Translations under genes and position numbers: made by a program
Part shown: positions 5,541 through 58,388 of the stretch, piece after piece
How positions within the stretch are numbered: position 1 is the stretch's first letter
Layout of the letters: each line of letters opens with the position of its first letter
Assembly (NCBI GenBank): GCA_964607145.1
Contig: CAZSIX010000002.1
Coordinates: 139,989 to 203,988 of the forward strand
Length of the DNA: 64,000 nucleotides
Source of the DNA: an uncultured Planctomycetota bacterium
GTDB lineage: Bacteria; Planctomycetota; JAJSAM01; JAKLKS01
Direction: 5' to 3'
Notes under the pieces: generated by a model
Told to the model about the DNA's origin: nothing
What the model saw: only the letters and a program-made list of their open reading frames with translations
Database searches by the model: none

Positions 5541-5803
5541 GGCGATTCCTCTCCCGCCGGGTCGTCCCCGCCGTCGTCCTCCGCTCCGTCCTCCGCCGCC
5601 GGGCGCCTCCCCGGCATCCGGTCGCTCACCTTGCGCCGCGGCTTCCGGTAGAGGTGCACGAAACCGCAGACGGCGCACGCGAACCCGACCAGCGGGTCCC
5701 CGAACCAACCGAAGGTGGCGGGCACGTAGCCGTGGATGTCCTTCGGGGCGGTGAACTCCGTGGCCCCGCAGGAGAGGCACTTCGGCGGGCGCTGCGCGCT
5801 CAC
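5537..5803 (-). CDS. Small zinc-ribbon protein (CxxC...CxxC), embedded in the hut operon
   Basis: GTG at 5801-5803 overlaps the hutU TGA (GTGA); [17 protein letters not shown]...[15 protein letters not shown] then acidic tail. Same frame as junk ORF 5537..7528 but only this segment looks protein-like. Confidence 0.55.
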
Positions 5804-9092: not shown

Positions 9093-9204
9093 GCCTTCGC
9101 ATCCTACCCCGCGCTCCCCGGCGCCCTCCGCGGTCCCGCGGCGTCCCCGTCCGCGGACGGACTGCGCCCCCGCGCCCCCTTCCCGCTACGATGCCGCTCC
9201 CCCC

Positions 9205-11531: not shown

Positions 11532-11557
11532 CGCCGGACCATGGCGATGCAAGCCGG

Positions 11558-13015
11558 CTAGCGAACTCTCAGCTCGACCGCCTCAGCCCGATCGAACGGA
11601 CTCCCATCACCAACCTCATAGAAGTAGTTCGATCCCCACGCGAGCCAGGCTCCTTCAATATCAGTAGCGTGAGCCCCCGTGTCACCGGTGAAGAGTTCCA
11701 CAACCCCGCTCACAGTCGTCCGAACAGGGTAAGCGCGATGGGCGAACGACCCATCGCAGAGTTCGCCCCGCGAGTTGCTTCCCCAACCGAACAGCGCTCC
11801 TTGCGAATCTAGCGCATATCCAGAGTCAAACCCTGCCGCAATGCGTACGATACTGCGAAGACCCACAACGCTGCCCGGAGTCAAACGACTGACCTGAGTT
11901 CCATCTCCCAGCTGACCAAACGCATTCGAGCCCCAGGTGAACACCTCACCGCTGTCGCTGAGCACCAATGAGAACTGACCGCGTGCCGCAACGGCGACCG
12001 CGGTTGGGATTCCCGGAACGCCAACCGGGGTCCACCGATCCTCCGTTGCTCCGTCCCCAAGCTGGCCGGCCCCGTTCCACCCCCATGCGAGAACCGCGCC
12101 GCCGTTCAGGAGTGCCACGTTGTGCTGGTTGCCGACCGCGAGCGCGCGAATGCCGTCTAGCGCGGGAACGCGGATCGGTCGAACGCGAGGGCTATCGGTA
12201 CCATCGCCCAAGTTTCCTCTGGCGTTGCCTCCCCACGCAAAGACCTCTCCTGCGGCAGTTACGGCGAAAGACGTAAAAAAACCCGCTGAAACCGCAATCG
12301 GATCCCGAACCTCCGGAACAGGTTCGGGTACGACGCTGGGAGCACCGTCCATGAACCCATCGTGGTCCCCCCAGAACAGGAGCGTTCCATCATCCCGGAT
12401 CGCGAGGAGATGCTCTCCCCCGGCCGCGATGGTAACGATGCGCGAGAAGCCCTCCAGCGGCACCGGGCGCGTCTCGTAGTACGGATAGCCCTCACCGTAG
12501 GGTCGCGACTCGTTTCGCGCAAAGGACGCGGGGTACTCACCCCAGAAGCGGAGCGTTCCATCGGACATGCGCGCAACCCCGAACTCCGTTCCGAACTGCA
12601 CGTCGCTCACTCGCGGAACGACATCAATCCGGCGTGACTTTGAGATGACTCGACTGTCAGCCGTCCTAACCCGCACGCGCACGTCTTCGTGGACCTCGGT
12701 GGGGCTCCAGTTGAACTGGGCAGTGCGGGCGCTCTCCGTTCCGAGAATGTCCCAGGTCAGCCCCGAGTCTCTGGACGCTTCCACAACGACGATCTCGCCC
12801 CCGACCCCTTGCGCCTTCCACTCGACCGTTGCAACCCTTCCCACCGGCCACAGTTCGTGATTTCGCGGCTCACGCAGCATGATCTTGCCGAAGGCCCCTG
12901 TTGGATCGTCAGAGTTATTGCGGCCACAGCCGGGCAGCACGAGCCCAAACTGAAGCACAACAGAAACCAGAACGACCGCAGCGCAACGCGCACGACTGAG
13001 CGACAACGCCGACAT
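11558..13015 (-). CDS. RCC1-repeat (beta-propeller) lipoprotein
   Basis: MSALSLSRARCAAVVLVSVVLQFGLVLPGCG (lipobox); several repeats of the type WGWNGAGQLGDG, WGSNAFGQLGDG, WGGNARGNLGDG. Nucleotide composition and codon use are clearly lower in GC than the flanks. Confidence 0.85.
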   Translation of the reverse strand: MSALSLSRARCAAVVLVSVVLQFGLVLPGCGRNNSDDPTGAFGKIMLREPRNHELWPVGRVATVEWKAQGVGGEIVVVEASRDSGLTWDILGTESARTAQFNWSPTEVHEDVRVRVRTADSRVISKSRRIDVVPRVSDVQFGTEFGVARMSDGTLRFWGEYPASFARNESRPYGEGYPYYETRPVPLEGFSRIVTIAAGGEHLLAIRDDGTLLFWGDHDGFMDGAPSVVPEPVPEVRDPIAVSAGFFTSFAVTAAGEVFAWGGNARGNLGDGTDSPRVRPIRVPALDGIRALAVGNQHNVALLNGGAVLAWGWNGAGQLGDGATEDRWTPVGVPGIPTAVAVAARGQFSLVLSDSGEVFTWGSNAFGQLGDGTQVSRLTPGSVVGLRSIVRIAAGFDSGYALDSQGALFGWGSNSRGELCDGSFAHRAYPVRTTVSGVVELFTGDTGAHATDIEGAWLAWGSNYFYEVGDGSPFDRAEAVELRVR

Positions 13016-13311
13016 CCGTGCGCATGCGCGTCGCGCACCCGCGCCAGACGCTGGCCATCGATGCGGCATATTGCCGCGCCGAGTCATCGAGGAACTCAAG
13101 CGGCTGCCGCACAGGCCCAAGCTACACGGCACAGTGTCGGGATACGGTGTCAGTCTCCCACGTGGTTTCCGCGGTGCGTTCACTCCGCGACGGGGCCCCG
13201 CGAAGGCAGCGCAACCCGGGAACAGCCGGACCGGCTCCGAACGGCGGAGCGGACGGGGGTGCCGACTCTCTCCGTCTCCCACCCACCGCCGCCGCACGCC
13301 GGCACGACCCC

Positions 13312-15613: not shown

Positions 15614-15807
15614 CGGGGGGAGGATACACCAGCCCCGGGGAGACCCCCTCCTCGCGCGCCCGCCTTGCCCCGCCCGGAGGGAAGAGATAGCCTTGACGCC
15701 GTGTTGATGCGTGAAGGTCCCGGGGGGGCGTGCCGGGGGACGGCGCGATCCGTCCCGGGAATCGCGGTCGAGCGTCCGCAGCGCGGGCGCGGGGGAGGCG
15801 GCAGGAC

Positions 15808-16053
15808 ATGAGCGGCAAGAAGGGGTTCCTGGTGTTCGCGGCGGTGGCGGGTCTGCTCTCGGCGGGGGCGGTCGGGTGCGCCTCCAAGGGCGATCACCAC
15901 GGCGAGAAGAAGGACGACTCGAAGATGGAGAAGAACTCCTGCAAGGGCGGCGGCAAGTGCAAGGAGGGCGGGAAGTGCAAGTCCGGCGGACAGTGCAAGG
16001 AAGGCGGCAAGTGCAAGGCCGGCGGCGGCTGCGGCAAGAACTCCTGCGGCTAG
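15808..16053 (+). CDS. Small secreted/lipoprotein Cys-rich repeat peptide (GG[KQ]CK repeats); candidate RiPP precursor for the adjacent MNIO
   Basis: MSGKKGFLVFAAVAGLLSAGAVGCAS (signal peptide, lipobox) then KGDHHGEKKDDSKMEKNSCKGGGKCKEGGKCKSGGQCKEGGKCKAGGGCGKNSCG; GGAGG RBS 9 nt upstream of ATG 15808; located 57 nt before the DUF692 gene. Confidence 0.75.
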   Translation: MSGKKGFLVFAAVAGLLSAGAVGCASKGDHHGEKKDDSKMEKNSCKGGGKCKEGGKCKSGGQCKEGGKCKAGGGCGKNSCG

Positions 16054-16110
16054 ACGATCCCACGGCATGACCGGGACGCCGGGGGCCCCGCCTCCGGCGT
16101 CCCTCCCGCC

Positions 16111-16965
16111 ATGATCGCCAACCGATTCGGCCTCCCGGACCTCGGGTTCGGCGTGGGGCTCCGCCCGACGCACTACGCCCACGTCCTCTCGACGTGGCCG
16201 GCGGTGGACTTCTTCGAGATCATCTCGGAGAACTACATGGACCAGGGGGGGCGGCCGCGGGAGGCGCTGGAGGCGGTGGCCGCGCGCTACCCCGTCGTCA
16301 TGCACGGCGTGTCGCTGTCCATCGGGTCCACGGATCCCCTGGACATGGACTACCTCCGCCGCCTGCGGGCGCTGGCGGATCGCATCGACGCGCCCTGGCT
16401 GAGCGACCACCTCTGCTGGACCGGCGTGGCGGGGGAGAACCTCCACGACCTGATGCCCGTGCCCCGGACCGAAGAGGCGGTGCGCCACATCCGCGACCGG
16501 GTGCGGCGCGTCCAGGACTTCCTCGGGCGGCCGCTCCTGCTGGAGAACCCCTCCTCGTACATGGGCTTCGCCGCCGACGCCATGCCCGAGGCGGAGTTCC
16601 TGGCCCGCATCGCCGAGGGCGCCGACTGCGCCCTCCTGCTGGACGTGAACAATGTCCACGTGAGCGCGCGGAACCACGGGTTCGACCCGGAGGCGTACAT
16701 CCGCACGCTCCCCCTGGACCGCGTCGTGCAGTTCCACCTCGCCGGCCACGAGGACCACGGGGCGTACATCATCGACACGCACGACGCGCACGTCGTGGAC
16801 GCCGTGTGGGACCTCTTCCGGCGCACCTGGGCGCTGACGGGGCCCCGCGCGACGCTGGTGGAGTGGGACGACCACATCCCGCCCTTCGAGGTCGTGCACG
16901 CGGAGGCGGAGCGCGCCCGCGCGGAGGCGGCGGCGTCCCCGGCGGAGGGCGCCGTTGCCCGGTAG
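16111..16965 (+). CDS. DUF692 family protein (multinuclear non-heme iron oxidative enzyme, MbnB/TglH/BufB-like)
   Basis: 284 aa; [42 protein letters not shown] motifs typical of DUF692/MNIO TIM-barrel proteins. Confidence 0.9.
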
Positions 16966-17770
16966 GGAGGGGCGCGACGGGGCCCTCGACGGGCTGGAGC
17001 GCTGGGTGCGGGACGTCGTGACCGCGCCCGCGGACCCCGACGGCGCGGAGGCGGGGCGCGTCCTCGCCCCCCTCCCGGGCCTCCCCCCGGCGGAGCAGTT
17101 GCGGATCTACCGGGACGGCTGGTTCTCGCGGCTCCGCTCGGCGCTGGCGGAGGACTTCCCGGGCCTCGAGCACGCCCTCGGCCACCACGGGTTCGACCAC
17201 CTCTGCGCCGACTACCTGCGCGCCCACCCGTCCTCGTACACCGACATCTGCCGCGTGGGCGTGGACATGGAGCGGTTCGTGCGGTCCCGGACGGACCTCG
17301 CCGACGTCGGGTTCCTCGCCGACCTGGCGCGACTGGAGTGGTCCGTCACGTCGGTCTTCGACCGCGCCGACGGCCCGGTGCTGCGGGTCGCCGATCTCGA
17401 GGGGACGGACACGGAGACGCTCGCCGCCGCCCGCTTCCCCCTGGCGTCCACCACGGACCTCCTGGACCTGGGGTACCCGGTGCACGAGTACCTGGAGGCC
17501 GTCCTCGCCGAGGGGTCGCCGGCGGTTCCCGCGCCGCGGCCCTGCACCGTCGTCGTCTCCCGCGCCGGGACCGCCATGAGCCGGATGGAGGTCGCCGGCC
17601 CCCTCGTCCCCGTGCTGCGGGCGCTGGCGGAGGGCGCGTCGCTGGAGGAGGCGGTCGGCACCGCCGCGGAGTGCGCGGAGGACGACGCGGCGCTGGAAGC
17701 CCTGGCGGTGGCGATGCGGGACGGGTTCGCGCGCTGGGTCGGGGCGGGCGTGTTCGCGCCGACGGGGTAG
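16955..17770 (+). CDS. DUF2063 family protein (MbnC/BufC-like partner of the MNIO)
   Basis: 271 aa; overlaps the DUF692 gene by 11 nt; N-terminal region typical of DUF2063 (LQRWV-like, [19 protein letters not shown]). Confidence 0.8.
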
Positions 17771-43004: not shown

Positions 43005-43205
43005 GCGTGTCCTCCCGTCGGGTGAGCGGCGCCGGAGCGTACCCGATGTTCCCTCCGCGGGTCGTCGGCGGGGGTCTACCCGGCGCGGGCGGGGGGGACG
43101 GGGAGGGGGCCTCGTTGAAGGAATCCGCCGCCCCGCGCTGTCCATTCCCGTGGAGGGGCCCCCGCGGCGGGGGTCCCCCGGTCTCCCGTGCCATGGAGGT
43201 GGAGC

Positions 43206-43421
43206 ATGACGAAGAAGTGGCTACGACTCGCGCTCGTCGCCGGTGCGGCGGCTCTCGCGGCGCCGGCGCTGGCGGGCGACGGGAACGGCGCGTTCCAGTG
43301 CGACAACGCGTGCCCCCTCGCGCAGCAGGCGAACACGATGCGCTCCTTCGGCGGCGAGTGGGCGGCGCCGCACGCGACCGCGCTGACCGCGGCCGTCCGG
43401 CGGAACCTGGAGCGGATCTAG
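43206..43421 (+). CDS. Small secreted Cys-containing protein upstream of the ECF sigma factor
   Basis: GGAGGTGGAG RBS then ATG 43206; MTKKWLRLALVAGAAALAAPALA signal peptide; mature part has CDNAC. Confidence 0.5.
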   Translation: MTKKWLRLALVAGAAALAAPALAGDGNGAFQCDNACPLAQQANTMRSFGGEWAAPHATALTAAVRRNLERI

Positions 43422-43477
43422 GTCGGGCGGGCGGTCGCCGGGCCCCGGGGGCGGCATCCACCCCCGATCGGGGGACG

Positions 43478-44038
43478 ATGAGCGGGCTCACTCGGGATCA
43501 GTTCCGGCGGGCGTTCGAGGGGAATCGGGACCAGGTGTTCCGGTTCCTCTACCGCCTGTCCCGCAACGCCGCCGACGCCGACGACCTCCTCCAGGAGACC
43601 TTCCTCACCGTGTGGAACAAGCGGGACCAGTTCGAGGGGCGCGGCAGCCTGGAGGGCTACCTCCGGCGCACCGCGTACCGCACGTTCCTGAATCACCGGG
43701 AGCGGACGGGCCGTCGCGCGCGCCTGGCGCCCTCGGCGGGATCCCTCGACGCGGGGCGACTGCCCGAGCCGCCGGATCCGCGTCCCGCGGAGAGCCTCGA
43801 CGACGCGGACGCCCGCCGCTTCCTCCTGGCCCTCGTGCGGCGGGAACTGGACGGGATGCCGGAGGCGCAGCGGGACGCCTTCGTCCTGTTCCGGTACGAG
43901 GGGATGACGTGCCCCGAGATCGCCGAAGCGACGGACACCCCGGTCAAGACCGTGGAGACGCGGGTGCGCCGCGCGACGGCGGCGCTCGCCGGCCGGCTGG
44001 AACGCTATCGCTCCTACCTCCCGGCGGGGCGCCCGTGA
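43478..44038 (+). CDS. ECF-family RNA polymerase sigma factor
   Basis: DLLQETFLTVWNKRDQF (region 2), FVLFRYEGMTCPEIAEATDTPVKTVETRVRRA (region 4). Confidence 0.9.
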   Translation: MSGLTRDQFRRAFEGNRDQVFRFLYRLSRNAADADDLLQETFLTVWNKRDQFEGRGSLEGYLRRTAYRTFLNHRERTGRRARLAPSAGSLDAGRLPEPPDPRPAESLDDADARRFLLALVRRELDGMPEAQRDAFVLFRYEGMTCPEIAEATDTPVKTVETRVRRATAALAGRLERYRSYLPAGRP

Positions 44039-45210
44039 CCCGCGACGCGATCCCGCCGGATCTGCTGCGCGCCCTCGCCGAGGGGACGCTTCCGCCGGAG
44101 GAGGAGCGCCGTGTCCTCGCGCTCGTCTCCGGCGACCCCGTCGCCGCCGCCGACCTCGCCGCCATGGTCCAGGTGCTCGCGCTCGCCGCGGATCCCGCGC
44201 CCCCGCCGGTCTCGTCGGTGACCGCCGACGGGATGCTGGCGCGGATCGACGGCGCCGCGGTGCCGACGCCGTCCCCCGCCGGGCGCCGCATCCTGCGGCG
44301 GAGGCTGCTGCCGCTCGCGGCGGCGGGCGTGCTCGTCGCCGCCGGGCTCGCGGGCGCGAGCCTGCTGCTCCGCGGGCCGCAGGGACCGGCGACGGTCGCA
44401 CTGGCGATCCTCGGCGGATCCCCCCCGGTGGCGTCGGCGCAGGAACCGGAGCCGGTCCCGGCGGCCCTCCTCGCGTACGAGCCCGACGCGGATGGCACCA
44501 TCCGCTGGCTGCCGACGGTGGAGGAGGGGCGCGCGCTGGCGCGGCTCGCGGGACGCCCCGTGCTGGTCTACCTGTTCCATCCCTCCTGCCCGCTGTGCCG
44601 CCGGATGGGGGAGACGACCTTCCGGGACGCCGCCGTGCGGGCGGCGGCCCGCTCCTACGTGCCTGTCCGCGTCGACGTCACGGAGGGCGCCGGGGAGATG
44701 GACGTGGAGGAGATCTTCCGGCGGGGGTGGCCCTACATGGCGACCCAGGACGCCGACGGGGCCACGCTTCGCGAGTTCCCCGGGTTCCACGAGCCGGAGG
44801 AGATGACGGACCTGCTCGCGCCCGCCGGCGCCACCGCGCCGCCGCCCTGGGAGGCGGTCCGCGACGGAGCGGCGCGCCTCACCCGCGCAGACGCGCTGAT
44901 CGCGGAGGGCCGCCCCGGCCTCGCGTGGCGGGAGGTGGAGTCCGTCGCCTCCGCCGCGCCGGGGACTCCGCTGGCCGCGGCCGCGGAGGCGCGGCGGGCC
45001 CGGCTCACCGCCCGCGCCCGCGAACTGCTCGACGCCGCCCGCGCCGACGCCGTCGGCGATGGCGCCGCCGCATCCCGCGCGCTTCGGGAAGCCGCGCGCG
45101 TGTACGAGGGCTCCCCCGTGGCGGGGGAGTTCGACGGCGTCCGCCGGGCGCTGGACGAGACGGGGACCTTCCCCGTCCTCGTGGCGGCCCCGACCCCCCC
45201 GAGGAGGTGA
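44035..45210 (+). CDS. Anti-sigma factor: N-terminal cytoplasmic part, one TM helix, periplasmic thioredoxin-like domain with C-P-L-C motif
   Basis: GTG overlaps the sigma-gene stop (GTGA); TM LLPLAAAGVLVAAGLAGASLLL; periplasmic RPVLVYLFHPSCPLCRRMGETTF. Confidence 0.8.
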   Translation: MTRDAIPPDLLRALAEGTLPPEEERRVLALVSGDPVAAADLAAMVQVLALAADPAPPPVSSVTADGMLARIDGAAVPTPSPAGRRILRRRLLPLAAAGVLVAAGLAGASLLLRGPQGPATVALAILGGSPPVASAQEPEPVPAALLAYEPDADGTIRWLPTVEEGRALARLAGRPVLVYLFHPSCPLCRRMGETTFRDAAVRAAARSYVPVRVDVTEGAGEMDVEEIFRRGWPYMATQDADGATLREFPGFHEPEEMTDLLAPAGATAPPPWEAVRDGAARLTRADALIAEGRPGLAWREVESVASAAPGTPLAAAAEARRARLTARARELLDAARADAVGDGAAASRALREAARVYEGSPVAGEFDGVRRALDETGTFPVLVAAPTPPRR

Positions 45211-45213
45211 CCC

Positions 45214-46074
45214 GTGATCCGGCGTTCCGCGCTGGTCGCAGCCGCGCTGCTGCTCTCCGCCGCATCCGCCGTCGCCGCCGACGCGCTCGCGCCGGCGCTG
45301 GCGTCCCTGGAGAAGGGGGACTACGCCGCCGCGGCGGAGGTCGCCGCGAAGGTCCCCGCCGAGGATCCGCTCTATCCCCGGGCGCGCTACCTCATCGGGG
45401 AGTGCGCCCTCGCCCGCGGAGACGACGCGGCGGCGGCGGCGGAGTTCCGCAAGGTGCTCGAGAAGCGCCCCGGCGCCGTCCCCGCGATGGTCGGCCTGGG
45501 CCGCGCACTGGTGGCGGGGGGCAAGGCGGAGGAGGGGGAGGGCGAGATCCGGAAGGCGCTCAAGGCGGAGCCGAAGGATGGCGCCGCCCACCGGGCCCTC
45601 GGCGAGGCGCTGATCGCGCGCCGCAGGGAGGACGACGCGAAGAAGGCGTTCCTCGAGGCCCTGAAACTCGATCGCAAGGACGGGCTGGCGGCGCGGGCGC
45701 TCGTGGAACTCCACCTCAGGAAGGACGAGATCGACCTGGCGCTCCGGGTCGCGGAGACGCTGGTGAAGGCCGACGCCGCGTCGCCCATGGGCTACTTCCT
45801 CCGCGGCCTCGCGCTGGATCGCAAGGGGAAGGACGACGAGGCCATCGACGCGTACGAGAAGGCGCTGGCGAAGGACGACGGCTTCCTCGACGCGCACAAG
45901 AACCTCGCCATCCTGTGCACGTCCCGCAATCCGCTCTACGGGAACGCCGCCCGCACGAAGAAGGCCCTGGCCCACTACGCGCGCTACTTCGAACTGGGCG
46001 GACGCGACGAGGGGCTGCGGCAGGTCTACACGACCATCCGTTCCGTGCTCGAGGGCGACGCCGGAGAGCGATGA
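45214..46074 (+). CDS. Secreted tetratricopeptide-repeat protein
   Basis: GAGGAGG RBS, GTG start; signal peptide; TPR-like repeats (AEFRKVLEKRPGAVPAMVGLGRAL, AAHRALGEALIARRREDDAKKAFLEALKLD). Confidence 0.8.
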   Translation: MIRRSALVAAALLLSAASAVAADALAPALASLEKGDYAAAAEVAAKVPAEDPLYPRARYLIGECALARGDDAAAAAEFRKVLEKRPGAVPAMVGLGRALVAGGKAEEGEGEIRKALKAEPKDGAAHRALGEALIARRREDDAKKAFLEALKLDRKDGLAARALVELHLRKDEIDLALRVAETLVKADAASPMGYFLRGLALDRKGKDDEAIDAYEKALAKDDGFLDAHKNLAILCTSRNPLYGNAARTKKALAHYARYFELGGRDEGLRQVYTTIRSVLEGDAGER

Positions 46075-46177: not shown

Positions 46178-46771
46178 TCACCGGGCCGCCGCGGGCGGCC
46201 CCCGCGGCCGGTAGTCGCGCACGAAGGCGAGCAGGCCGTCGAACCACCGGTGGAATCCCATCGCCAGCATCTCGTCCGCGGCCTCGTCGTTGTTCCAGCC
46301 GTGGACCTCCATGCGGTAGATGGCCACCAGCGCTCCCGTGCGATCGCAGCCCTGCGCGCAGTGCACGAACACGGGTCGGCTCGCGGGGTCCGTGGCGACG
46401 GCGAGGAACTCCTCGACGGTCCCCTCGTCCGGCGGGTCCACGGTGAGGCCCGCCCGGAGCGGGAGCGCCACGACGCGGAGGCCGAGCGCCTCCGCGGCGG
46501 GATCCTCGGGATGGACCGCGCGGAGGCACACCACCGTGCGGACGCCCAGGTCCCGGAGCGCGCGCAGGCCTTCGGCGTCCGGTGCGGCGCCCCGGTAGAG
46601 GCCGTCGTCGACCCGGGACAGGTGGGGGACGGGAATCGCGGCCATGCCGGGATCGGAGGCGGGGGCCGCGCAGCCGGCGACGCACAGCAGGGCGGACCCC
46701 GCCGCAAGGCCGTGACGGACTCTCCGGCTCGCCGCGACGGGAACGGCCACGGGAGCGGGCGGGGATCCCAT
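46178..46771 (-). CDS. Dual-specificity/protein-tyrosine phosphatase-like lipoprotein
   Basis: Lipobox LLCVAGCAAP; catalytic loop VHCAQGCDRTG (CX5R). Confidence 0.8.
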   Translation of the reverse strand: MGSPPAPVAVPVAASRRVRHGLAAGSALLCVAGCAAPASDPGMAAIPVPHLSRVDDGLYRGAAPDAEGLRALRDLGVRTVVCLRAVHPEDPAAEALGLRVVALPLRAGLTVDPPDEGTVEEFLAVATDPASRPVFVHCAQGCDRTGALVAIYRMEVHGWNNDEAADEMLAMGFHRWFDGLLAFVRDYRPRGPPAAAR

Positions 46772-46841
46772 GGCCGCAATCTATCGTCCCCGCGGGGATC
46801 GCGTCCGCATCCCTGCGGGCCTCCGGGATTACAATCGCGCC

Positions 46842-47834
46842 ATGCGCATCGCGTCCGTGCTCGCCCTCGCCGCCGCTCTGGGCGCCATCCCGGCCCTCGC
46901 CGCCCCGCCCACGGGGGCCCTGGGCCCGCTCCGCGTCGAGGTCTTTGATCGGCTGGGCGTCCTGTCGCCGCTCGCGCCGCGGAAGGAGCGCCGCGCGCTG
47001 GAGAGGGCCCGGGCGGTGCTGCTCCTCCCCGCGGAGGACGTGGTGGCGGAACTGAAGTTCGCGGCGAAGGTGACGAAGGTCCTCTCCCGCGCGTTCCCCG
47101 GCGACGCCGTGCTCGACCCCATCCAGGAGTCGGCCGTCGCCACGCTGGGGGCTGTCGTGTTCACCGAGCGGGACGCGCTCGCCGCGGCGGCGGGCTCGCT
47201 ACCCTCCGCGGGTGCGGAGCGCGCGCTGGGGAAGGCGGTCGCGTCCGCCGACCGGCGCCTCGGAGGCCTGGAGGGGAAGCCGGTCTGGACGCGTGCGGCG
47301 CTGCTGGCGAGGACCTGCGCCGGCGTGGAGCGCACCGCGGAGCGGCTGGGGGTGGATCTCGACGAGCCGGAGCCCGAACCGCCGGTGGCGGACTTCTCCC
47401 TGGAGGACGTCAACCCGAACTCGCCGACCTCGGCCTCGTCCGTCTCGCCGCGGCAGCACATCGGCGCGGTCTCCGTCTGGTACTTCGGGCACTCCACCTG
47501 AAGCTACTGCCGGGCCCAGTTCCGGGCCCTCGACGGGATGCAGCAGGAGATCCTCGCCGACGAGCCCGGCTCGACCACGCGCATCCTCGGCATCAACGCC
47601 GCCGGCCACGAGTCGGCGAACGGGCTCGCCACCGCCGACGTGACGCTCCCGTGGCTCCAGGACACGCCGGCGGCGGACGCGTGGGGGCTCTGGGACGCGA
47701 CCTGGCGGGACGTCGTCGTCCTCGACGCCGAGAACCGCGTGGTGGCGGTCTACAACCTCACGAGCAACGATCTCGGCCAGCCCGCCAACTACGAGGCGCT
47801 CCTGGCGCTCATCCGCGGCGCCGAGGCGGAGTAG
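46842..47834 (+). CDS. TlpA/ResA-like periplasmic thioredoxin-fold oxidoreductase interrupted by an in-frame TGA (47499-47501) at the first position of the redox motif (T-[TGA]-S-Y-C); candidate selenoprotein or else a disrupted gene
   Basis: ORFs 46770..47501 and 47538..47834 are in the same frame with no other stop between them. Joined sequence ...PVADFSLEDVNPNSPTSASSVSPRQHIGAVSVWYFGHST[U]SYCRAQFRALDGMQQEILADEPGSTTRILGINAAGHE...VVVLDAENRVVAVYNL aligns as one thioredoxin domain with U-x-x-C. 6-bp hairpin GGGCCC-AGUUCC-GGGCCC starts 11 nt after the TGA. Confidence 0.55.
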
Positions 47835-47894
47835 CCCGATCCCCGCCGTCCCGTGGCCCCCGCCCCGTAGGATCCTCCGGCGGAGGGAACCTGC

Positions 47895-49586
47895 ATGACG
47901 GCTCGACCTGCGGCGACGGGGCTGGCACTGGCGCTGCTCGCTCTCCCCGTCGGCCCGTCGCCCGCCGCGGCGTCTCCCGGGGACGAGGCGCTGGAGGCCT
48001 TCCGGAAGGCCGAGCGGACGCTCGCCGTCACGAAGGCCGCCTGGTGGAAGGGGTTCGACGATGCGGAGCGGCGCGCCGTGGAGGCCTGGCGCCGGCCCGA
48101 TCGCGAGCAGTTCACGGACGGCGTGCTCGAGCCCGCCCCCGACGAGCCCCCCATCGACGAACTCTTCGGACGCTGGGCGGAGATGGAGGCGACGCACGGC
48201 CGCCTCTTCCGCGACCTGGGCGCGTCGGGCTCGCCGAAGGCGCTCCCCCTCCTCTGGAAGGAGGCCATGGCGGCGGTGGCGGAGGCGGAGGCCGCCGAGG
48301 CGGCCAACGCCCCCGGCGAGGTCAAGCGGTGGAAGGCGGGGCCCTCGCAGGAGCCGTCCATCCGGATCCACGGGCTGGCCCGGCGGCGGGAGGGGCTGGT
48401 GGAGGGGCTGGCCGCGGCACCGGGCGCGGCGGAGTTCCTCGCCGGGGACGGTCTCCAGGAGGCCGCCCGCGCCGATGCCCGCGCCCGCGCCGTGGCCCGG
48501 CGCGTGCTGGTGGCGGACGCGCTGGCGCGCGTTCCCTCGGGGCGCGGCCGCGAGGCCCTCGCCGCGCTGCTCAAGGACCCGGCGCCGGCGCTCCGAATCG
48601 CCGCGCTGGAGGGCCTCCAGCGGGCCGGGGGCCTCGACGCCGCCTCCGGCACGCCGCTCCTGGCGGATCCGGAACTCGCGGTGCGGTTCGCCCTGGCGGA
48701 CGTCCTCCTCGCGGCGCCGCCCCGCGAGGGCGCGTGGGTGGGACCACTGCTGGAGGCCTACGGCGCCGCGTCGGGGCGCTGGCGGCGGGAGGCCTTGGCG
48801 GTCCTCCGCCGCGTCACCGGCCGCGCCGACGGGGACGACCCCGCGGCCTGGTCCGCCTGGTTCGCGTCGGCGAGCGCGTCGCTCGGGGATGGCTCCTACC
48901 GGTGGCCCGCGGCGGACGCGGCGCCTCCGCCGCTCCCCCCGGACCCGGCGGCGGCGTACGCGTACGGCATCCCCCTCCCGACCCACGGGCTGTTGCTCGC
49001 CGCGGATGGCTGGGACGACCTCGTCGTCCCGGCGAAGTACGAGTTCCAGCGGACCCGGCACTTCCGGGACTGGACCACGGGCTCCCGGGACTGGCGGAAG
49101 GAGCGGGAGAGCGTGGGGGACGTGTTCTTCCGCGAGGTCCGCCGCGCGCTGGCGTCGCTGGCGGAGCCGGTGCGGTTCCGGATCCTCCTGAGCGGACACG
49201 CCGCCAACCAGGCGGACGCCGTCTCGTGGTACCCGGAGAAGGGGCCGGTCGCCGTGTCCGACCCGCAGCGCCGGCGCGCCGCCGCGTTCCTCGAGGACTT
49301 CAAGGTCGGGATGACGGAGAACTTCCAGCATTCGCTGCGGCTGCTGCAGGACGAGACCTGGGCGGACACAGCGGTGCTGGTGACCAACGGCAACCGGAAA
49401 CTGGGCCGGTTCATGTGCGGCCAGGCGCTCCTCGAGGAGTTCGTGCGCCGCCACCGGTTCCGGCGCCTGCGGCTCCACGTCGTGCACTTCATGGATCACG
49501 GCGCCGAGACCACGCGCGTACTGCGCGGGCTGGCGGAGTCCACCGGCGGGACCTACATCCGGGCGCTGGAGTCCACGCCGCCGTAG
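47895..49586 (+). CDS. Secreted HEAT-repeat protein with C-terminal vWA-like region (paralog of 35514..36842)
   Basis: Signal peptide MTARPAATGLALALLALPVGPSPAAA; HEAT-like repeats; C-terminal FRILLSGHAANQADA...GLAESTGGTYIR similar to the ending of the other paralog. Confidence 0.7.
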   Translation: MTARPAATGLALALLALPVGPSPAAASPGDEALEAFRKAERTLAVTKAAWWKGFDDAERRAVEAWRRPDREQFTDGVLEPAPDEPPIDELFGRWAEMEATHGRLFRDLGASGSPKALPLLWKEAMAAVAEAEAAEAANAPGEVKRWKAGPSQEPSIRIHGLARRREGLVEGLAAAPGAAEFLAGDGLQEAARADARARAVARRVLVADALARVPSGRGREALAALLKDPAPALRIAALEGLQRAGGLDAASGTPLLADPELAVRFALADVLLAAPPREGAWVGPLLEAYGAASGRWRREALAVLRRVTGRADGDDPAAWSAWFASASASLGDGSYRWPAADAAPPPLPPDPAAAYAYGIPLPTHGLLLAADGWDDLVVPAKYEFQRTRHFRDWTTGSRDWRKERESVGDVFFREVRRALASLAEPVRFRILLSGHAANQADAVSWYPEKGPVAVSDPQRRRAAAFLEDFKVGMTENFQHSLRLLQDETWADTAVLVTNGNRKLGRFMCGQALLEEFVRRHRFRRLRLHVVHFMDHGAETTRVLRGLAESTGGTYIRALESTPP

Positions 49587-49618
49587 GTCGGGGCCCGGGG
49601 ATCGGGAGGAGAGGCAGC

Positions 49619-50467
49619 ATGGCGAAGGGCAGGAAGGCGACGCCGTCCCGCTCGCGGTGGGACGTCCACCCGGCGGTCGGGATGGTGGGGAACTGGGTGC
49701 GCACGCTGAAGGAGAAGACCGGGCGCGACCTCGACGAGTGGGTGGCCCTCGTGGAGAAGGAGGGACCCGCCGGCGAGAAGGAGCGGCGCGACTGGCTGCG
49801 CAAGGAGCGGGGCCTCGCGATGAACTCGGCGTGGTGGATCGCGGAGAAGGCCTCCGGCGGCGGAACCTGGGACGAGGACCCGGACGCCTACCTGCGCAAC
49901 GCGGAACGCCACGCGACGGAACTGTTCTCGGGGGCCCGGGCCGGCTCTCGACCGCTGTTCGACGCGCTCGTGGAGCGGGGGCGGGCTCTCGGCGGGGACG
50001 TGAAGATCTGCCCATGCCAGACCATGGTGCCCTTCTACCGGAAGTTCGTGTTCGCCGAGGTCCGGCCCACCGCGGACGGCGTGGAACTGGGCCTGGCGCT
50101 GGGAAACCGGAAGCCCTCCGGCAGGCTCGAGCCGCTGGCGCGGATGGTGGGGAACCGGGTGCAGCACCGCGTCCTCCTCTCCTCGCTGGGGGACCTCGAC
50201 GCGGAAGTCGAGGGCTGGCTCCGGGAGGCGTACGAGCAGGGGGACCGCACGCAGGAGAAGAAGCTGGCGACGGCGGGCCCCCCGGCGGACCTCGAGGCGG
50301 CGCTCAAGCGGTCGAAGCCGGCGAAGGCGACCTGGGACTCCATGACGCCGCGCATGCAGTCCGACTGGATCCTCTTCATCGAGTCGGCGAAGAAGGCGGA
50401 GACCCGCGCGGCCCGCGTCGCTCGCGCGGAGGAGCGGCTGGCCGCGGGGAAGAAGACGACGTACTGA
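49619..50467 (+). CDS. DUF4287-like N-terminus / YdeI-OmdA-like C-terminal domain protein
   Basis: GGGAGGAGAGG RBS; C-terminus PAKATWDSMTPRMQSDWILFIESAKKAETRAARVARAEERLAAGKK typical of YdeI/OmpD-associated family. Confidence 0.7.
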   Translation: MAKGRKATPSRSRWDVHPAVGMVGNWVRTLKEKTGRDLDEWVALVEKEGPAGEKERRDWLRKERGLAMNSAWWIAEKASGGGTWDEDPDAYLRNAERHATELFSGARAGSRPLFDALVERGRALGGDVKICPCQTMVPFYRKFVFAEVRPTADGVELGLALGNRKPSGRLEPLARMVGNRVQHRVLLSSLGDLDAEVEGWLREAYEQGDRTQEKKLATAGPPADLEAALKRSKPAKATWDSMTPRMQSDWILFIESAKKAETRAARVARAEERLAAGKKTTY

Positions 50468-50475
50468 CCGGGCCG

Positions 50476-51621
50476 TCAACCGCGGCGGAGGATCTCCGCG
50501 GCGCGCACGAGGCTCTCCAGTTTGCGGCGCGCGCCGTCGGCGTCATTGACGGGCCTGTCGGCGAACGTCCCGAAGCCGCAGTCGGGGTTGAGCATCACGC
50601 GTCCGGGGCCGAGGATCTCCGCGGCGCGGCGGGCCCGCGCGGCCACCGCATGGGGGTCCTCGATCTCCTCCGTGCGCGGGTTGACGGCGCCGAGGCCGAG
50701 CATGGCCGCCGGCGGGAGCCCGGCGAGCACTTCCAGCGAGCCCGCGCGCGGTGTCGCGTACTCCAGCGCGAAGAAGCCCACGCGCATCCGGGCGAGCCAC
50801 GGGAGCAGCGGGTCGTAGTCGCCCTCCAGCAGCACCTCGTCCTTGCGGCTCCAGTTGCCGCGGCAGACGTGGATGCCGAAGCGGGTCCCCTGGATGCCCT
50901 CCACCACCCGGTTGAGAAGGTCCACGGCGAGGTCGAGTTCCCCCTCGGGACTGGCCTTGGCGGCCAGGGCGGCGCACATGAACGTGCGCGTGGCGGACTT
51001 CCCCGCGAACACGACCTCCGTAAGGACCGGCTCGTCGAACTGCACGAACTCCACGCCTTCCGCGGCCAGCGCCATGGCCTCCGCCCGGAGTAGGGCGACG
51101 ATGGCCTCGTTCAGCGCGGCCCGCGACGGGTAGGCCCCCTCGGACAGCCCCTTCACCCACGTGGATCGGGAGAGGAGGTAGGGGCCCGGCAGCGTCGCCT
51201 TGACGGGACGCTTCGTGTGGCGGCGGAGGAAGCGGACGTCGTCCAGGACGAGCGGGGCGCGGGCGCGGAGCGGGCCCGTCACGGTGGGGTTCTTGAGGGC
51301 GAACGCGGGCACGTCGAGGGCGGAGAGCATGGCCTCGAAGCCGGCCTTGTCCTCGACGAAGTCCAGGAGGTCCGCCATGGTCATCAGCCGGAGCCCCTCC
51401 ACCCGCTCGCACAGGAACGAGTAGAAGTTGTCCCGGCGCTGCTCGCCGTCGGTGACCACGTCGACGCCGGCGTCCTCCTGGTGGCGGAGGGAGAGCAGCA
51501 CCGCCTCGTCCCGCAGCGCCTCCAGATCGGGCGACCGGCGCCGCGTCGCCTCCAGCAGGGCCGGGGGGCGGGGCCAGGAGCCCACGGTCGTGACCGGGAA
51601 CGCGGGGAGCGGGTCGCTCAC
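50476..51621 (-). CDS. Short cobalamin-independent methionine-synthase-family (MetE C-terminal domain/UroD-like) methyltransferase
   Basis: GTG overlaps the upstream TGA (GTGA); VTTVGSWPRP..., zinc ligands GIHVCRGN and NPDCGFG; ~380 aa as in YxjG/YxjH-type proteins. Confidence 0.8.
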   Translation of the reverse strand: MSDPLPAFPVTTVGSWPRPPALLEATRRRSPDLEALRDEAVLLSLRHQEDAGVDVVTDGEQRRDNFYSFLCERVEGLRLMTMADLLDFVEDKAGFEAMLSALDVPAFALKNPTVTGPLRARAPLVLDDVRFLRRHTKRPVKATLPGPYLLSRSTWVKGLSEGAYPSRAALNEAIVALLRAEAMALAAEGVEFVQFDEPVLTEVVFAGKSATRTFMCAALAAKASPEGELDLAVDLLNRVVEGIQGTRFGIHVCRGNWSRKDEVLLEGDYDPLLPWLARMRVGFFALEYATPRAGSLEVLAGLPPAAMLGLGAVNPRTEEIEDPHAVAARARRAAEILGPGRVMLNPDCGFGTFADRPVNDADGARRKLESLVRAAEILRRG

Positions 51622-52364
51622 GGAACCTTCATCCCGATGCGGACCGCGGTCCCGTCCATCAGCGTCCGCGCCACGGGGGAGCGGCGCACCGTCTCCTCCC
51701 ACAGGGCGCGCAGCGCGTCCTCGTCCCCGTCGGCGTCCACCCACGCGGTCCCCTCGATGGCCTCCAGGGCCGGGGTTCCCTCGTCCTCCACCGCGAGGAA
51801 CACGAGCAGGTTCGACGACTTCGCCCGCAGGGACACCTCCACGTTCCGCACGGCGATGCCGCGCCGGGAGGCGCGCCACTGGAATCCGACGGCGAGGCAG
51901 CCTCCCAGGGACGCCAGCAGCAGTTCCACGGCGCTGGGAGCGGGGTCGGCGGTGTCCAGGGACGCCGGCTGGCCCACGGGGACGGCGTGGTTGCGCGCGA
52001 ACGCCCGCCCCTCCATGCCGCCGGTCCACCGGGTCCGGACGGACCAGGAGAACCCGCGCGCCGTCGCCAGGTCGGCGTCCAGCGACTCGTCCCTCGCCCC
52101 CGCCTTCCGCAGGAACCAGGACGTGCTGCCGCCGTCCCCGGGGCGCACCGCGTCGATCCCGTGCCCGACCATGCGGCACCAGGCGGGAAGATCCTCGCGC
52201 ACGCTCACTTCGCGGCTCCGGACCTCCAGCACGCCGCGGGGCGGGACGCGCCGCATGGCGTCCCGGATGATCAGAAGGAGTCCGCTGCCGCAGTCGAGGT
52301 CCCCGCCGTCGCAGACTCCGTCCGCGGCGGGTGCCGGGACGGCATCGGTTCCGCCGTCGGCCAT
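51618..52364 (-). CDS. TusA-like sulfurtransferase domain fused to an OsmC-like domain
   Basis: N-terminus DGGDLDCGSGLLLIIRDAMRRVPPRGVLEV (TusA-like); C-terminus ELLLASLGGCLAVGF...(OsmC/Ohr-like). Confidence 0.7.
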   Translation of the reverse strand: MADGGTDAVPAPAADGVCDGGDLDCGSGLLLIIRDAMRRVPPRGVLEVRSREVSVREDLPAWCRMVGHGIDAVRPGDGGSTSWFLRKAGARDESLDADLATARGFSWSVRTRWTGGMEGRAFARNHAVPVGQPASLDTADPAPSAVELLLASLGGCLAVGFQWRASRRGIAVRNVEVSLRAKSSNLLVFLAVEDEGTPALEAIEGTAWVDADGDEDALRALWEETVRRSPVARTLMDGTAVRIGMKVP

Positions 52365-52368
52365 TTCG

Positions 52369-52731
52369 CTAGTACGTCACGCAGGGCGATCCGCCGGAGA
52401 GGAACTCCACCAGTTTCGCGCCGCCCACGATGGCGGCCCCGTCCACCAGGCGGGCCTCGTCGAGCCCCCGCTTCTTGAAGCAGGGGGAGCAGACGAGGAT
52501 CTTCCCGCCGGCGCCGTGGAAGGACTTCATGAGGTCGCGCAGCGCGGCGAACCCCTCCTCGTGGACGTCGTCCGCGTAGCCCTTCTGGCACAGGCGCACG
52601 CCCTCGGTGCTGAGGAACACGATGGTCTCCTTCTCCGAGGCGGCGGCGGCGTTGGCGATGACGAAGGCGACCGTGGCGCGGTCCGTGTTGTCCTTCGCGC
52701 AGGTGAGGCTCACGCAGAATCGTCCGGCCAT
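52369..52731 (-). CDS. DsrE/DsrF-family sulfur-relay protein
   Basis: 120 aa; FVIANAA...ILVCSPCFKKRGL pattern of the DsrE/YchN family with conserved Cys. Confidence 0.75.
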   Translation of the reverse strand: MAGRFCVSLTCAKDNTDRATVAFVIANAAAASEKETIVFLSTEGVRLCQKGYADDVHEEGFAALRDLMKSFHGAGGKILVCSPCFKKRGLDEARLVDGAAIVGGAKLVEFLSGGSPCVTY

Positions 52732-52734
52732 GGG

Positions 52735-55791: not shown

Positions 55792-57552
55792 ATGCGAAGC
55801 GTCGCCATCGCCGCGGCCGCGCTGCTGTTGGGGGTGGCGGGACCGGCCCTGGCGGAGGGACTCGTGGAGACGAGCCCCGTCTCGGACCCCGCCGTCGGCT
55901 ACTCCATCCGGCCCCTCCGCGGTTGGGAGCCCCTGCCCCGCAAGAACCCCGGCGATCCCACCGCCGGGAGCGAGGTCGGCGGCTGGTACGGGAAGAAGGA
56001 GTGGCAGGGTTGCCGGCTGGAGATCCTCGCCTTCGGCTCGTTCTTCGACGAGGGGCGGGAGCGGGTGGACACCGTCGCCCCGACGCCGCCCCCCGGCGGC
56101 GATGAGGGGGGATCCGGCGAGGGGGAAGGCCCCCCGGAACCTCCGGCGGGGGGCGAGGAGGGCGGCGACGGCGGCGGCGAGGGCGACGGCGCCGGCGGAG
56201 GGCCGACCCCTCCCGGCGACGGGAGCGCCCCCGGGAAGCCGAAGGCCGGGCCGGCGACGGTGGAGGAACTGTTCGGTCCGCCGCCCGCCTCCTTCGAGGA
56301 GTGGCGCACGCGGGTGGCCGACCTCTACAAGCGCAATCGCATGCGCTTCGACCTGCAGGAGGTCAAGCGCCTCAAGTTCGGGAGCGACGAGGGGGTGCTC
56401 TGGGAGGGGCTGGCGAGCGTCTCGCCGGGCAGGAGCGATGTCGTGGCGCTGGCGGCGGCCAGCATCCGTCGGCGCAACTTCGAGGTCGTCGCCATCCTCT
56501 CCACGACGGACTCCCAGCCGCCCCGGGGCAACGGCAATCCGTTCGTGGTCTGCCTCCGATCGCTGCGCATCCTCTCCGACAGCGAGATGGAGCGCGCCCG
56601 CGATGCGCTGGCGAAGCGCACGACGGGGCTCGACGACGAGGGCGCCTGGGCGGAGCGGGTGAAGCGCAGCCTCCCCAAGGGGTGGAAGTACCGCGAGACG
56701 GCGAACTACATCATCGTCTACGACAAGTCCATCGACGCGGAGCCGCCCAAGGGGAACCCGAACCTGGTCCCGCGCATCCAGCGGCAGCTGGAGGGCATCC
56801 GGAAGAACGTGTACGAGGTCCTCTTCCCGCCGGACCGTCCCATCACGGTCAAGTCCGTGGTGAAGATCACGCAGGACCCCGAGCAGTACCGCGCCTACAA
56901 CGCCCCCGCGGGATCCGCCGGTTACTGGTCATGGCCCTCGCGGGAACTGGTGTTCTTCTACAGCGCATCCGACAACGACCTCACGCTGGACGTGCTCAAC
57001 CACGAGGCGTTCCACCAGTACATCTTCTACTCCGTCGGGCAGGTGGCGCCCCACTCGTGGTTCAACGAGGGGCACGGCGACTACTTCGCCGGCTTCACCG
57101 CGAAGGAGGGGAAGTTCCTCGAAGGGAAGTTCGATCGGCGTCACGACAAGATGAAGGCCGCCGTGGACGGGCGCATGTGGGTGCCGCTGGACAAGTTCCT
57201 GAAGTACTCCCAGGCCGAGTACTACCGCCGGGGAGGCAAGCCGAAGGAGGGCGGGGACGTACTCCAGAACTACGCCCAGGGCTGGTCCATCGTCTACTTC
57301 CTCCGCACGACGAAGGACCCGAAGTACGCGGGTGTCCTGGAGCGCTACTTCAACGCGCTCAAGGCCGAGGTCACCGCCTGGCGCAAGCAGGTGGAGGAGG
57401 AGGCGGCGAAGTCCGGCCTGCCGCCCCGCCGGGGGCTCCTCGTGCCCGAGGAGGTCAACGAGGCGGCCCGGGGCAAGGCCCTCGAGGCCGCGTTCAGCGG
57501 GATCGACCTCTCCGTCCTCGAGAAGGACTGGATCGACTCGAAGCCCTACTGA
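55792..57552 (+). CDS. Secreted protein with HExxH motif (putative zinc metallopeptidase, DUF1570-like) and Gly/Glu/Pro-rich linker
   Basis: Signal peptide MRSVAIAAAALLLGVAGPALA; low-complexity GGDEGGSGEGEGPPEPPAGGEEGGDGGGEGDG; LNHEAFHQYIF (HExxH). Confidence 0.7.
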   Translation: MRSVAIAAAALLLGVAGPALAEGLVETSPVSDPAVGYSIRPLRGWEPLPRKNPGDPTAGSEVGGWYGKKEWQGCRLEILAFGSFFDEGRERVDTVAPTPPPGGDEGGSGEGEGPPEPPAGGEEGGDGGGEGDGAGGGPTPPGDGSAPGKPKAGPATVEELFGPPPASFEEWRTRVADLYKRNRMRFDLQEVKRLKFGSDEGVLWEGLASVSPGRSDVVALAAASIRRRNFEVVAILSTTDSQPPRGNGNPFVVCLRSLRILSDSEMERARDALAKRTTGLDDEGAWAERVKRSLPKGWKYRETANYIIVYDKSIDAEPPKGNPNLVPRIQRQLEGIRKNVYEVLFPPDRPITVKSVVKITQDPEQYRAYNAPAGSAGYWSWPSRELVFFYSASDNDLTLDVLNHEAFHQYIFYSVGQVAPHSWFNEGHGDYFAGFTAKEGKFLEGKFDRRHDKMKAAVDGRMWVPLDKFLKYSQAEYYRRGGKPKEGGDVLQNYAQGWSIVYFLRTTKDPKYAGVLERYFNALKAEVTAWRKQVEEEAAKSGLPPRRGLLVPEEVNEAARGKALEAAFSGIDLSVLEKDWIDSKPY

Positions 57553-57581
57553 GGGTCCGCGCGTCGGCGGGCCCTCCCGCG

Positions 57582-57607
57582 AGGCTCCGGGCCAGCCCGG
57601 AGCCTCG
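57582..57607 (+). terminator. Perfect 11-bp GC-rich hairpin 30 nt after the stop of the HExxH protein gene (no U-tract)
   Basis: GAGGCTCCGGG-ccag-CCCGGAGCCTC. Confidence 0.4.
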
Positions 57608-57974
57608 GCGTCGACCACGGCGAGGCCGGGATTCGGACGGCGACGGTCGAAGGAGCGGGTTGCCCCGCGTGGCGGGCGCGCAGCGCACCCGACGCCTGCG
57701 CCGCCTGTACCCGCCGACGGCCGCGGGGCCGCCCGCCATCCCGACGTGCGACCCGACCGCGGGCGGTACCCTTCCTGCCCCGCCGGGCGTCGCCGGGAAC
57801 CGAGGTTGCGCCGGCGGGGTGCCCCTTCTGTCAGCGCTCTCGATCCAATCGCCGTTGGCGAACACCCGGATCCACGCACCCGCCCCCGCCGGACTCTTCG
57901 GGTCCCGGTCACCCCGGCGCAAGATGAACGTCGCGCGGGCCGGCCAGGGGCCAGGCCGCCGGAGGAGGCACACC

Positions 57975-58388
57975 ATGGCGGAAGCGGGCGTGGTGACGGT
58001 GCGGACCACGGCGGGCGAGGGGTACGCCTGCCGCGTGGATGCCGGGGGGCACGGGCTGCGTGCCGACGAGCCCGCGGCGGCGGGGGGGACGGACTCGGGG
58101 CCCACCCCCTCGGCTCTTCTGCTCTCGGCGCTGGGGGCCTGCACGGCCATCACCCTGCGGATGTACGCGGGGAGGAAGGGCTGGCCGCTGGAGGACGTCG
58201 AGGTGCGGCTCTCGCGCACGCCGGGCACCCCGGGCGACGGGGACGGCCGCGACCGCATCCACCGGTCGGTGCGGGTCACGGGATCCCTGGACGCGGAGCA
58301 GAGGGCCCGCCTCCTGGACATCGCCGGCAAGTGCCCCGTCCACCGCATGCTCACCGGCGGCATGGTGGTCGAGACCGTGGCGGGGTAG
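57975..58388 (+). CDS. OsmC/Ohr-family peroxiredoxin-like protein
   Basis: GGAGGAGG RBS; ...SALLLSALGACTAITLRMYA...LDIAGKCPVHRML (both conserved Cys). Confidence 0.85.
   Translation: MAEAGVVTVRTTAGEGYACRVDAGGHGLRADEPAAAGGTDSGPTPSALLLSALGACTAITLRMYAGRKGWPLEDVEVRLSRTPGTPGDGDGRDRIHRSVRVTGSLDAEQRARLLDIAGKCPVHRMLTGGMVVETVAG

Follow-up and report, generated by a model that had tools for sequence, protein, structure and literature searches.

An in-frame UGA in a TUGYCR-type thioredoxin-fold gene of an uncultured Planctomycetota bacterium probably encodes selenocysteine

By combining reading-frame analysis with family and structure searches and a comparison of homologous loci, we characterize here a gene with an internal TGA in a 64-kb stretch of DNA from an uncultured Planctomycetota bacterium (contig CAZSIX010000002.1, positions 139,989 to 203,988; hereafter the window, with all coordinates counted from its first nucleotide), and argue that it encodes a selenoprotein. 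On the plus strand, translation of 46842-47834 gives a single frame of 330 codons whose only internal stop, the TGA at 47499-47501, is embedded in ...VSVWYFGHST-[TGA]-SYCRAQFRAL.... The open reading frames (ORFs) 46770..47501 and 47538..47834 share this one frame, and the statement in a preliminary description of the locus that nothing but the TGA splits them is borne out. We annotate 46842..47834, with its TAG stop at 47832-47834, as a putative complete selenoprotein coding sequence (CDS), in which the UGA codon at 47499..47501 would encode selenocysteine (Sec) 220 at the first position of a U-S-Y-C redox motif, aligned with the Cys of CxxC homologues, and the TGC codon at 47508..47510 encodes Cys223, by alignment the resolving Cys of the UxxC motif. 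As start codon we favour the ATG at 46842, because the signal-peptide-like sequence MRIASVLALAAALGAIPALA begins there; with the ATG at 46770 instead, the gene would overlap that of a phosphatase (46178..46771), which is transcribed divergently. In the source collection the gene is stored as two products, of 219 (P0001) and 98 (P0153) residues.

Coding character continues across the TGA. Third-position GC is 0.91 upstream and 0.99-1.0 downstream in the same frame, and the codon-position GC profile places 46651-48601 in the plus-strand frame of the selenoprotein gene. Across the window, an in-frame TGA has coding-like sequence to either side in only four cases. Of the other three, two are simple junctions between neighbouring genes, and one (50478, minus strand) is the stop of a MetE-like gene, beyond which the sequence is non-genic. 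In this DNA TGA serves as an ordinary stop codon: the 35 ORF stops comprise 18 TGA, 16 TAG and one TAA. Two long minus-strand ORFs that lie over the locus (46829..47497 and 47199..50015) were rejected as artefacts of a GC-rich sequence (74% GC in the window), the codon-position GC pattern being that of plus-strand coding.

For family searches the read-through product was entered with Cys at the Sec position. Residues 182-325 (47385..47816, plus strand) form a TUGYCR-type thioredoxin-fold domain, matching NCBIfam NF053656.1 with an E-value of 1.8e-59 and 199.9 bits, twice the curated cut-off of 100, over profile positions 1-144 of 146 and unbroken at the TGA. This entry, redoxin_TUGYCR, is defined in NCBIfam release 20.0 (June 2026) as a 'TUGYCR motif thioredoxin fold (seleno)protein'. 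Pfam AhpC-TSA gave a sub-threshold match (E 1.2e-3, 19.2 bits against a cut-off of 26), and a sequence-profile search of the PDB returned only marginal hits, to secreted thiol-disulfide isomerases at E of about 0.2-0.4. Among full-length relatives the nearest is P0002, a metagenomic lipoprotein of 193 residues that shares 55% identity over the domain and has FGHSD-C-LYC in place of the window's FGHST-[TGA]-SYC. An AlphaFold model of this Cys homologue, made from a 40-row family alignment, has a mean pLDDT (predicted local distance difference test score) of 90.1, and a Foldseek comparison of the model with solved structures placed ResA, DsbE, pneumococcal Etrx2, DsbF, AhpE and TlpA at the top, with a probability of 1.00, target-normalised TM-scores of 0.7-0.84 and identities of 14-22%. 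With this homologue as proxy, the window domain is predicted to have a ResA/TlpA/DsbE-like fold. The window protein resembles TlpA/ResA/CcmG enzymes in fold and is not a sequence-level member of their Pfam family; the TlpA/ResA-like thioredoxin domain of the preliminary description was right at the level of the fold, the sequence family being TUGYCR.

N-terminal to the domain, the translation begins with a predicted signal peptide (46842..46901, plus strand), whose A-L-A cleavage motif was read by eye and which has no lipobox Cys; most relatives start with a lipoprotein-type signal peptide ending in Cys. It is followed by a region of about 160 residues (residues 21-181; 46902..47384, plus strand) that has coding-like third-position GC, ends in an EPEPEPP linker and has no Pfam or NCBIfam match. 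A search with the full-length protein returned nothing beyond the gene itself and P0002, in which the N-terminal region is absent; just one homologue was found in this way because Sec forms are truncated in protein databases, so that further loci had to be sought at the DNA level.

The active site of the window protein reads T-[TGA]-S-Y-C-R, compared with a family consensus of T-U/C-G-Y-C-R, and the same Gly-to-Ser variant occurs in five TGA-bearing relatives (L007, L009, L034, L038 and L078). The codon for Cys223 is kept in all four rows of one alignment (A3) and is TGY in every TGA-bearing DNA of another (A4, columns 16-18, with T16 and G17 invariant); a few variants without the resolving Cys occur in a third (A5). 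By its score, its motif, its fold as judged by proxy, and its Sec/Cys column together with a selenocysteine insertion sequence (SECIS) hairpin, both of which are taken up below, the locus belongs to NF053656.

The preliminary description had placed the TGA at the first Cys of a CxxC motif and had suggested an alignment of homologues as a check. Alignment with Cys homologues places it there, and across the family the column holds either TGA or a Cys codon. We collected 83 homologous loci, four from a genome scan and 79 from a metagenome scan, of which 78 could be scored: 62 carry TGA at the column and 16 carry TGT or TGC, TAA or TAG occurs in none of the 78, and in-frame protein homology goes on downstream of the column in every case. 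The genome scan used a single peptide pattern that contains the Cys, so that its count of three Cys to one Sec is biased; the patterns of the metagenome scan were placed away from the active site. The TGA-bearing loci extend to divergent sequences such as L005, which shares 33-43% identity with the window and has the motif YWASAT-[TGA]-SHCQ. The contig that carries this locus (CAYXGP010000164.1) is labelled 'uncultured Enterobacterales'; its ORFs look GC-rich by amino-acid content, and the taxonomic label looks doubtful.

Protein databases hold the same pattern in fragmented form. A profile search of 1.84 billion representative proteins returned 1872 relatives; among the best 150 of these, most are fragments of about 98 residues, about 90 being C-terminal stubs. 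The fragments of about 98 residues begin at a conserved Met 12 residues past the Sec column, which is exactly where a gene caller would restart after a TGA. Full-length relatives with CxxC number 33. In a second, word-indexed search, 79 of the 80 matches are C-terminal stubs named 'hypothetical protein', and the contigs of relatives show paired fragments, one of 73-75 and one of 98-111 residues. Judged by its codons, the TUGYCR family appears to be strongly Sec-biased, at about 80% Sec.

Two further observations on the relatives deserve mention in their own right. Some carry tandem domain arrays (P0003, P0061, P0011 and P0004) whose called ORFs start just after one Sec column and stop just before another; one of them, P0003 (612 residues), has five domain matches with degenerate inner active sites (TQTRDR, TDTACR and TDPACR). 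Such arrays are probably multi-Sec proteins chopped up in databases. In another relative, P0005 (WYFGHSS-W-SYCRSQFG), Trp occupies the Sec column, evidently through translation under a code that takes TGA as Trp, so that its Sec is mis-annotated.

Downstream of the TGA, starting at the 11th nucleotide after it, lies a candidate SECIS hairpin (47512..47529, plus strand) with the sequence GGGCCC/AGUUCC/GGGCCC, in which arms at 47512-47517 and 47524-47529 form six G-C pairs around a loop at 47518-47523. The preliminary description had called this hairpin compatible with a bacterial SECIS, and it agrees with the constraints of the bSECISearch model for bacterial SECIS elements as quoted in PMC13188914: its apical loop is 6 nt (3-9 nt required), its upper stem 6 bp (4-16 bp), the G required in the first two loop positions stands at position 2 and is followed by U, the UGA-to-loop spacing of 16 nt is the smallest that the 16-37 nt range allows, and the minimum free energy (MFE) of the hairpin folded alone is -12.7 kcal/mol (at most -7.5 kcal/mol). 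In contrast to the SECIS of E. coli fdhF, no bulged U or lower stem is evident. In DNA of 74% GC such a hairpin is by itself no proof. Folding energy is not discriminating here, and we therefore relied on covariation across homologues.

When 53 distinct TGA-bearing sequences are aligned on the TGA (alignment A4), a family hairpin emerges between 11 and 27 nt past the UGA (columns 20-26 and 30-36), with a loop that is mostly GUU, and GGC in one subgroup. In this register 87.3% of the cells are paired, compared with 28-44% when the 3' partner is slid by one to three columns, and in five of the seven pairs both partners have changed. Double-change cells number 48, compared with 14.4 ± 2.8 in shuffled alignments, none of 500 shuffles reaching the observed count, and the covariation score is 0.382 versus 0.126. 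The arms consist of the codons of variable residues, and as the amino acids change the two arms co-vary and the stem is kept, as exemplified by GUAGCC/GGCUAC, GAAGCC/GGCUUC, GUGCCC/GGGCAC, GUAUCC/GGAUAC and UGCGCA/UGCGCA. Conversely, Cys-bearing loci lack the hairpin, even in a marine group that retains the peptide QFGHL; their mean MFE is -7.9 kcal/mol versus -15.0 kcal/mol for TGA-bearing loci, two sets that differ in base composition too.

The window hairpin lies at the position of this covarying family hairpin. Its 5' arm falls in the family columns and its 3' arm one nucleotide further downstream, and its two arms, both GGGCCC, are unlike those of all other members and yet pair perfectly. 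A covariance model (R1) built from 52 TGA-bearing homologues, with the window excluded, finds the UGA and its SECIS context at 47493..47543 on the plus strand with 54.9 bits and an E-value of 1.7e-11. In a scan of both strands of the 64 kb this is the sole strong match, the runner-up scoring 14.6 bits (E 0.057); part of the score stems from conservation of the coding sequence and not from structure. That the SECIS is kept, with compensating arms specific to the lineage, argues for functional Sec decoding.

Taken together, we propose, with a probability of about 0.9, that 46842..47834 encodes one exported selenoprotein of 330 residues in which UGA is read as Sec220. We go no higher mainly because Sec machinery was looked for only in the window and was not seen there. 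In the architecture that we envisage, a signal peptide, an orphan N-terminal region of some 160 residues and the EPEPEPP linker would precede a TlpA/ResA-like TUGYCR domain, and the protein would most likely be exported. During translation, the hairpin at 47512-47529, inside the CDS, would recruit SelB with Sec-tRNA(Sec), and the UGA at 47499-47501 would be decoded as Sec220. Sec220 and Cys223 would then constitute a U-x-x-C centre at the N-terminal end of helix 1, where the selenolate would attack a substrate disulfide or sulfenate and Cys223 would resolve the resulting selenenylsulfide. We hypothesize that the enzyme functions as an extracytoplasmic thiol:disulfide oxidoreductase and that, by analogy with TlpA and ResA, it is probably re-reduced by a membrane reductant of the DsbD/CcdA type.

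Several observations weigh against this proposal. No selA, selB, selD or tRNA-Sec gene was found in the 64-kb window: ARAGORN and Rfam at gathering thresholds returned only a tRNA-Met, and no SelA, SelB or SelD family member appeared among 40 window ORFs scanned with Pfam, a survey that is not exhaustive and that covers a small part of the genome, the 40 ORFs having been called by hand with incomplete coverage at 11.5-14.7 kb, 40.7-43 kb and 58.6-64 kb. The 71-nt region around the hairpin folds no better than its shuffled counterparts (z = 0.02). The hairpin is also off the exact family register, with QFR in place of QFG, a loop of 6 nt compared with 3-5 nt and the 3' arm displaced by one nucleotide, and in the family register just four of the seven modelled pairs can form in the window. 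Finally, literature searches on 'TUGYCR' and NF053656 returned no paper that names the family, and no experimental evidence for any of its members was found in the literature.

Three alternatives were considered. In the first, the Cys codon TGC would have changed to TGA in an organism unable to decode Sec, leaving a dead gene or two fragments; this would take a single substitution, and both the two separate products in the source collection and a window in which no Sec machinery was seen would be consistent with it. We nevertheless regard such a pseudogene as very unlikely, and the preference of the preliminary description for selenocysteine over a pseudogene holds up, given that TGA is the majority state of the family (62 of 78 loci, with TAA or TAG in none), that the 6-bp SECIS hairpin persists where the family has it, both arms carrying compensating changes of their own, and that downstream of the TGA third-position GC stays at 0.99-1.0 with no further disruptions. 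A split here would, moreover, cut the thioredoxin fold at its active site.

With one sequence at hand a single-base error is possible, and Cys forms do exist (16 of 78 loci, and the 33 full-length CxxC proteins), so that the true codon could be TGC or TGT and the gene an ordinary CxxC member of the family. The hairpin bears directly on this explanation: Cys forms have none downstream, whereas the window has one and scores its 54.9 bits with a model whose training set consisted only of TGA-bearing forms, which makes a sequencing or assembly error, in our view, highly improbable. In the last alternative the UGA is read through as something other than Sec, for instance as Trp under a reassigned code or by near-cognate suppression. 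The Trp at the Sec column of P0005 would fit such a scheme, but TGA ends 18 of the 35 window ORFs as an ordinary stop, the column is Cys in the homologues without TGA, a Sec/Cys and not a Trp signature, and a covarying SECIS points to Sec; we judge it extremely improbable. Decoding of the UGA as Sec220 is the reading that we carry forward.

How does the proposed selenoprotein relate to known systems? With the NF053656 family the window domain shares the Sec/Cys column, the resolving Cys and the Arg that follows it, and a SECIS at equal distance from the UGA. It differs in the Ser that replaces Gly in the motif, as in several relatives; in the substitution of QFR for QFG, which displaces the 3' arm of the SECIS and gives the 6-nt loop; and in the combination of a non-lipoprotein signal peptide with an orphan region of about 160 residues, most members being short lipoproteins of 170-200 residues. 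With TlpA, ResA and DsbE (CcmG) it shares the fold, the spacing of C/UxxC where helix 1 begins and, presumably, an extracytoplasmic location. In contrast to these enzymes, to which identity is only 14-22%, it would carry Sec in place of the first Cys; the TUGYCR family has motifs of its own (DVNxxS, LPWLQD and WRDVV), and the window shows no connection with genes for the maturation of cytochrome c or Cu(A).

Two reviews of the prokaryotic selenoproteome list UxxC thioredoxin-fold families, namely the Prx-like thiol:disulfide oxidoreductase, the thiol-disulfide isomerase-like protein (representative MGB1650493.1) and the Redoxin family protein (representative HEU0032618.1), and neither mentions TUGYCR or NF053656. 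Compared by description, these families share with TUGYCR an AhpC/TlpA-like thioredoxin fold and a discovery mainly through Sec/Cys pairing in marine and other metagenomes, and may overlap with it under an older name; like TUGYCR, none has been functionally characterised. The locus is a previously unannotated member of an already curated selenoprotein family and involves no new mechanism, its minor peculiarities being the orphan N-terminal fusion, the missing lipobox, the Ser in the motif and a SECIS that has slid by one nucleotide.

The gene is flanked by the divergent gene for a DSP-type phosphatase lipoprotein and, downstream, by a gene for a protein of 563 residues without a family match; the gene neighbourhoods of relatives are not conserved. 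Just upstream, at 43007-46074 on the plus strand, lies an operon-like set that consists of an ECF (extracytoplasmic function) sigma factor, an anti-sigma factor to which a Thioredoxin_7 domain with a CPLC motif is fused (43612..45210, plus strand; Pfam PF13899, E 1.7e-9) and a TPR protein (45214..46074, plus strand). This set may be a redox-sensing envelope module near the selenoprotein gene. On a broader reading, the non-lipoprotein signal peptide and the orphan, helical region of some 160 residues would make up a new TUGYCR architecture beside an ECF-sigma operon, with the orphan region recruiting a specific envelope substrate and the whole acting as a dedicated, stress-regulated periplasmic selenoenzyme; we consider this unlikely.

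Elsewhere in the window, two OsmC-like genes and one DsrE-like gene, at 51618-52734 (minus strand) and 57552-58388 (plus strand), have no in-frame TGA; OsmC-like and DsrE-like families have Sec-containing forms in other bacteria. A bufferin-type cluster for a ribosomally synthesized and post-translationally modified peptide (RiPP) occupies 15715-17770 on the plus strand and comprises a small Cys-rich ORF ending in ...GKCKAGGGCGKNSCG (15715..16053), the MNIO-family maturase BufB (16054..16965; NCBIfam NF050167, 366 bits against a cut-off of 310; Pfam MbnB_TglH_ChrH, E 1.4e-110) and a DUF2063 partner (16838..17770). At about 11550-13050, third-position GC drops to 0.67-0.75, compared with about 0.95 in the rest of the window, and there is no convincing ORF; this stretch could be non-coding or foreign DNA. 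Histidine-utilisation genes stand side by side at 5803-9185 on the minus strand, urocanase at about 5803-7500 and histidine ammonia-lyase at 7488-9185, and represent ordinary metabolism.

Reading the UGA as Sec would restore a complete extracytoplasmic redox enzyme from two hypothetical fragments and would mark the source organism as a probable Sec user. Relatives are cut into stubs in the same manner throughout public protein collections, where the annotation would need to be corrected accordingly. Sec-biased, as its codons suggest, and widespread in environmental metagenomes, the TUGYCR family is suited to studying the preference for Sec versus Cys in periplasmic thiol-disulfide chemistry.

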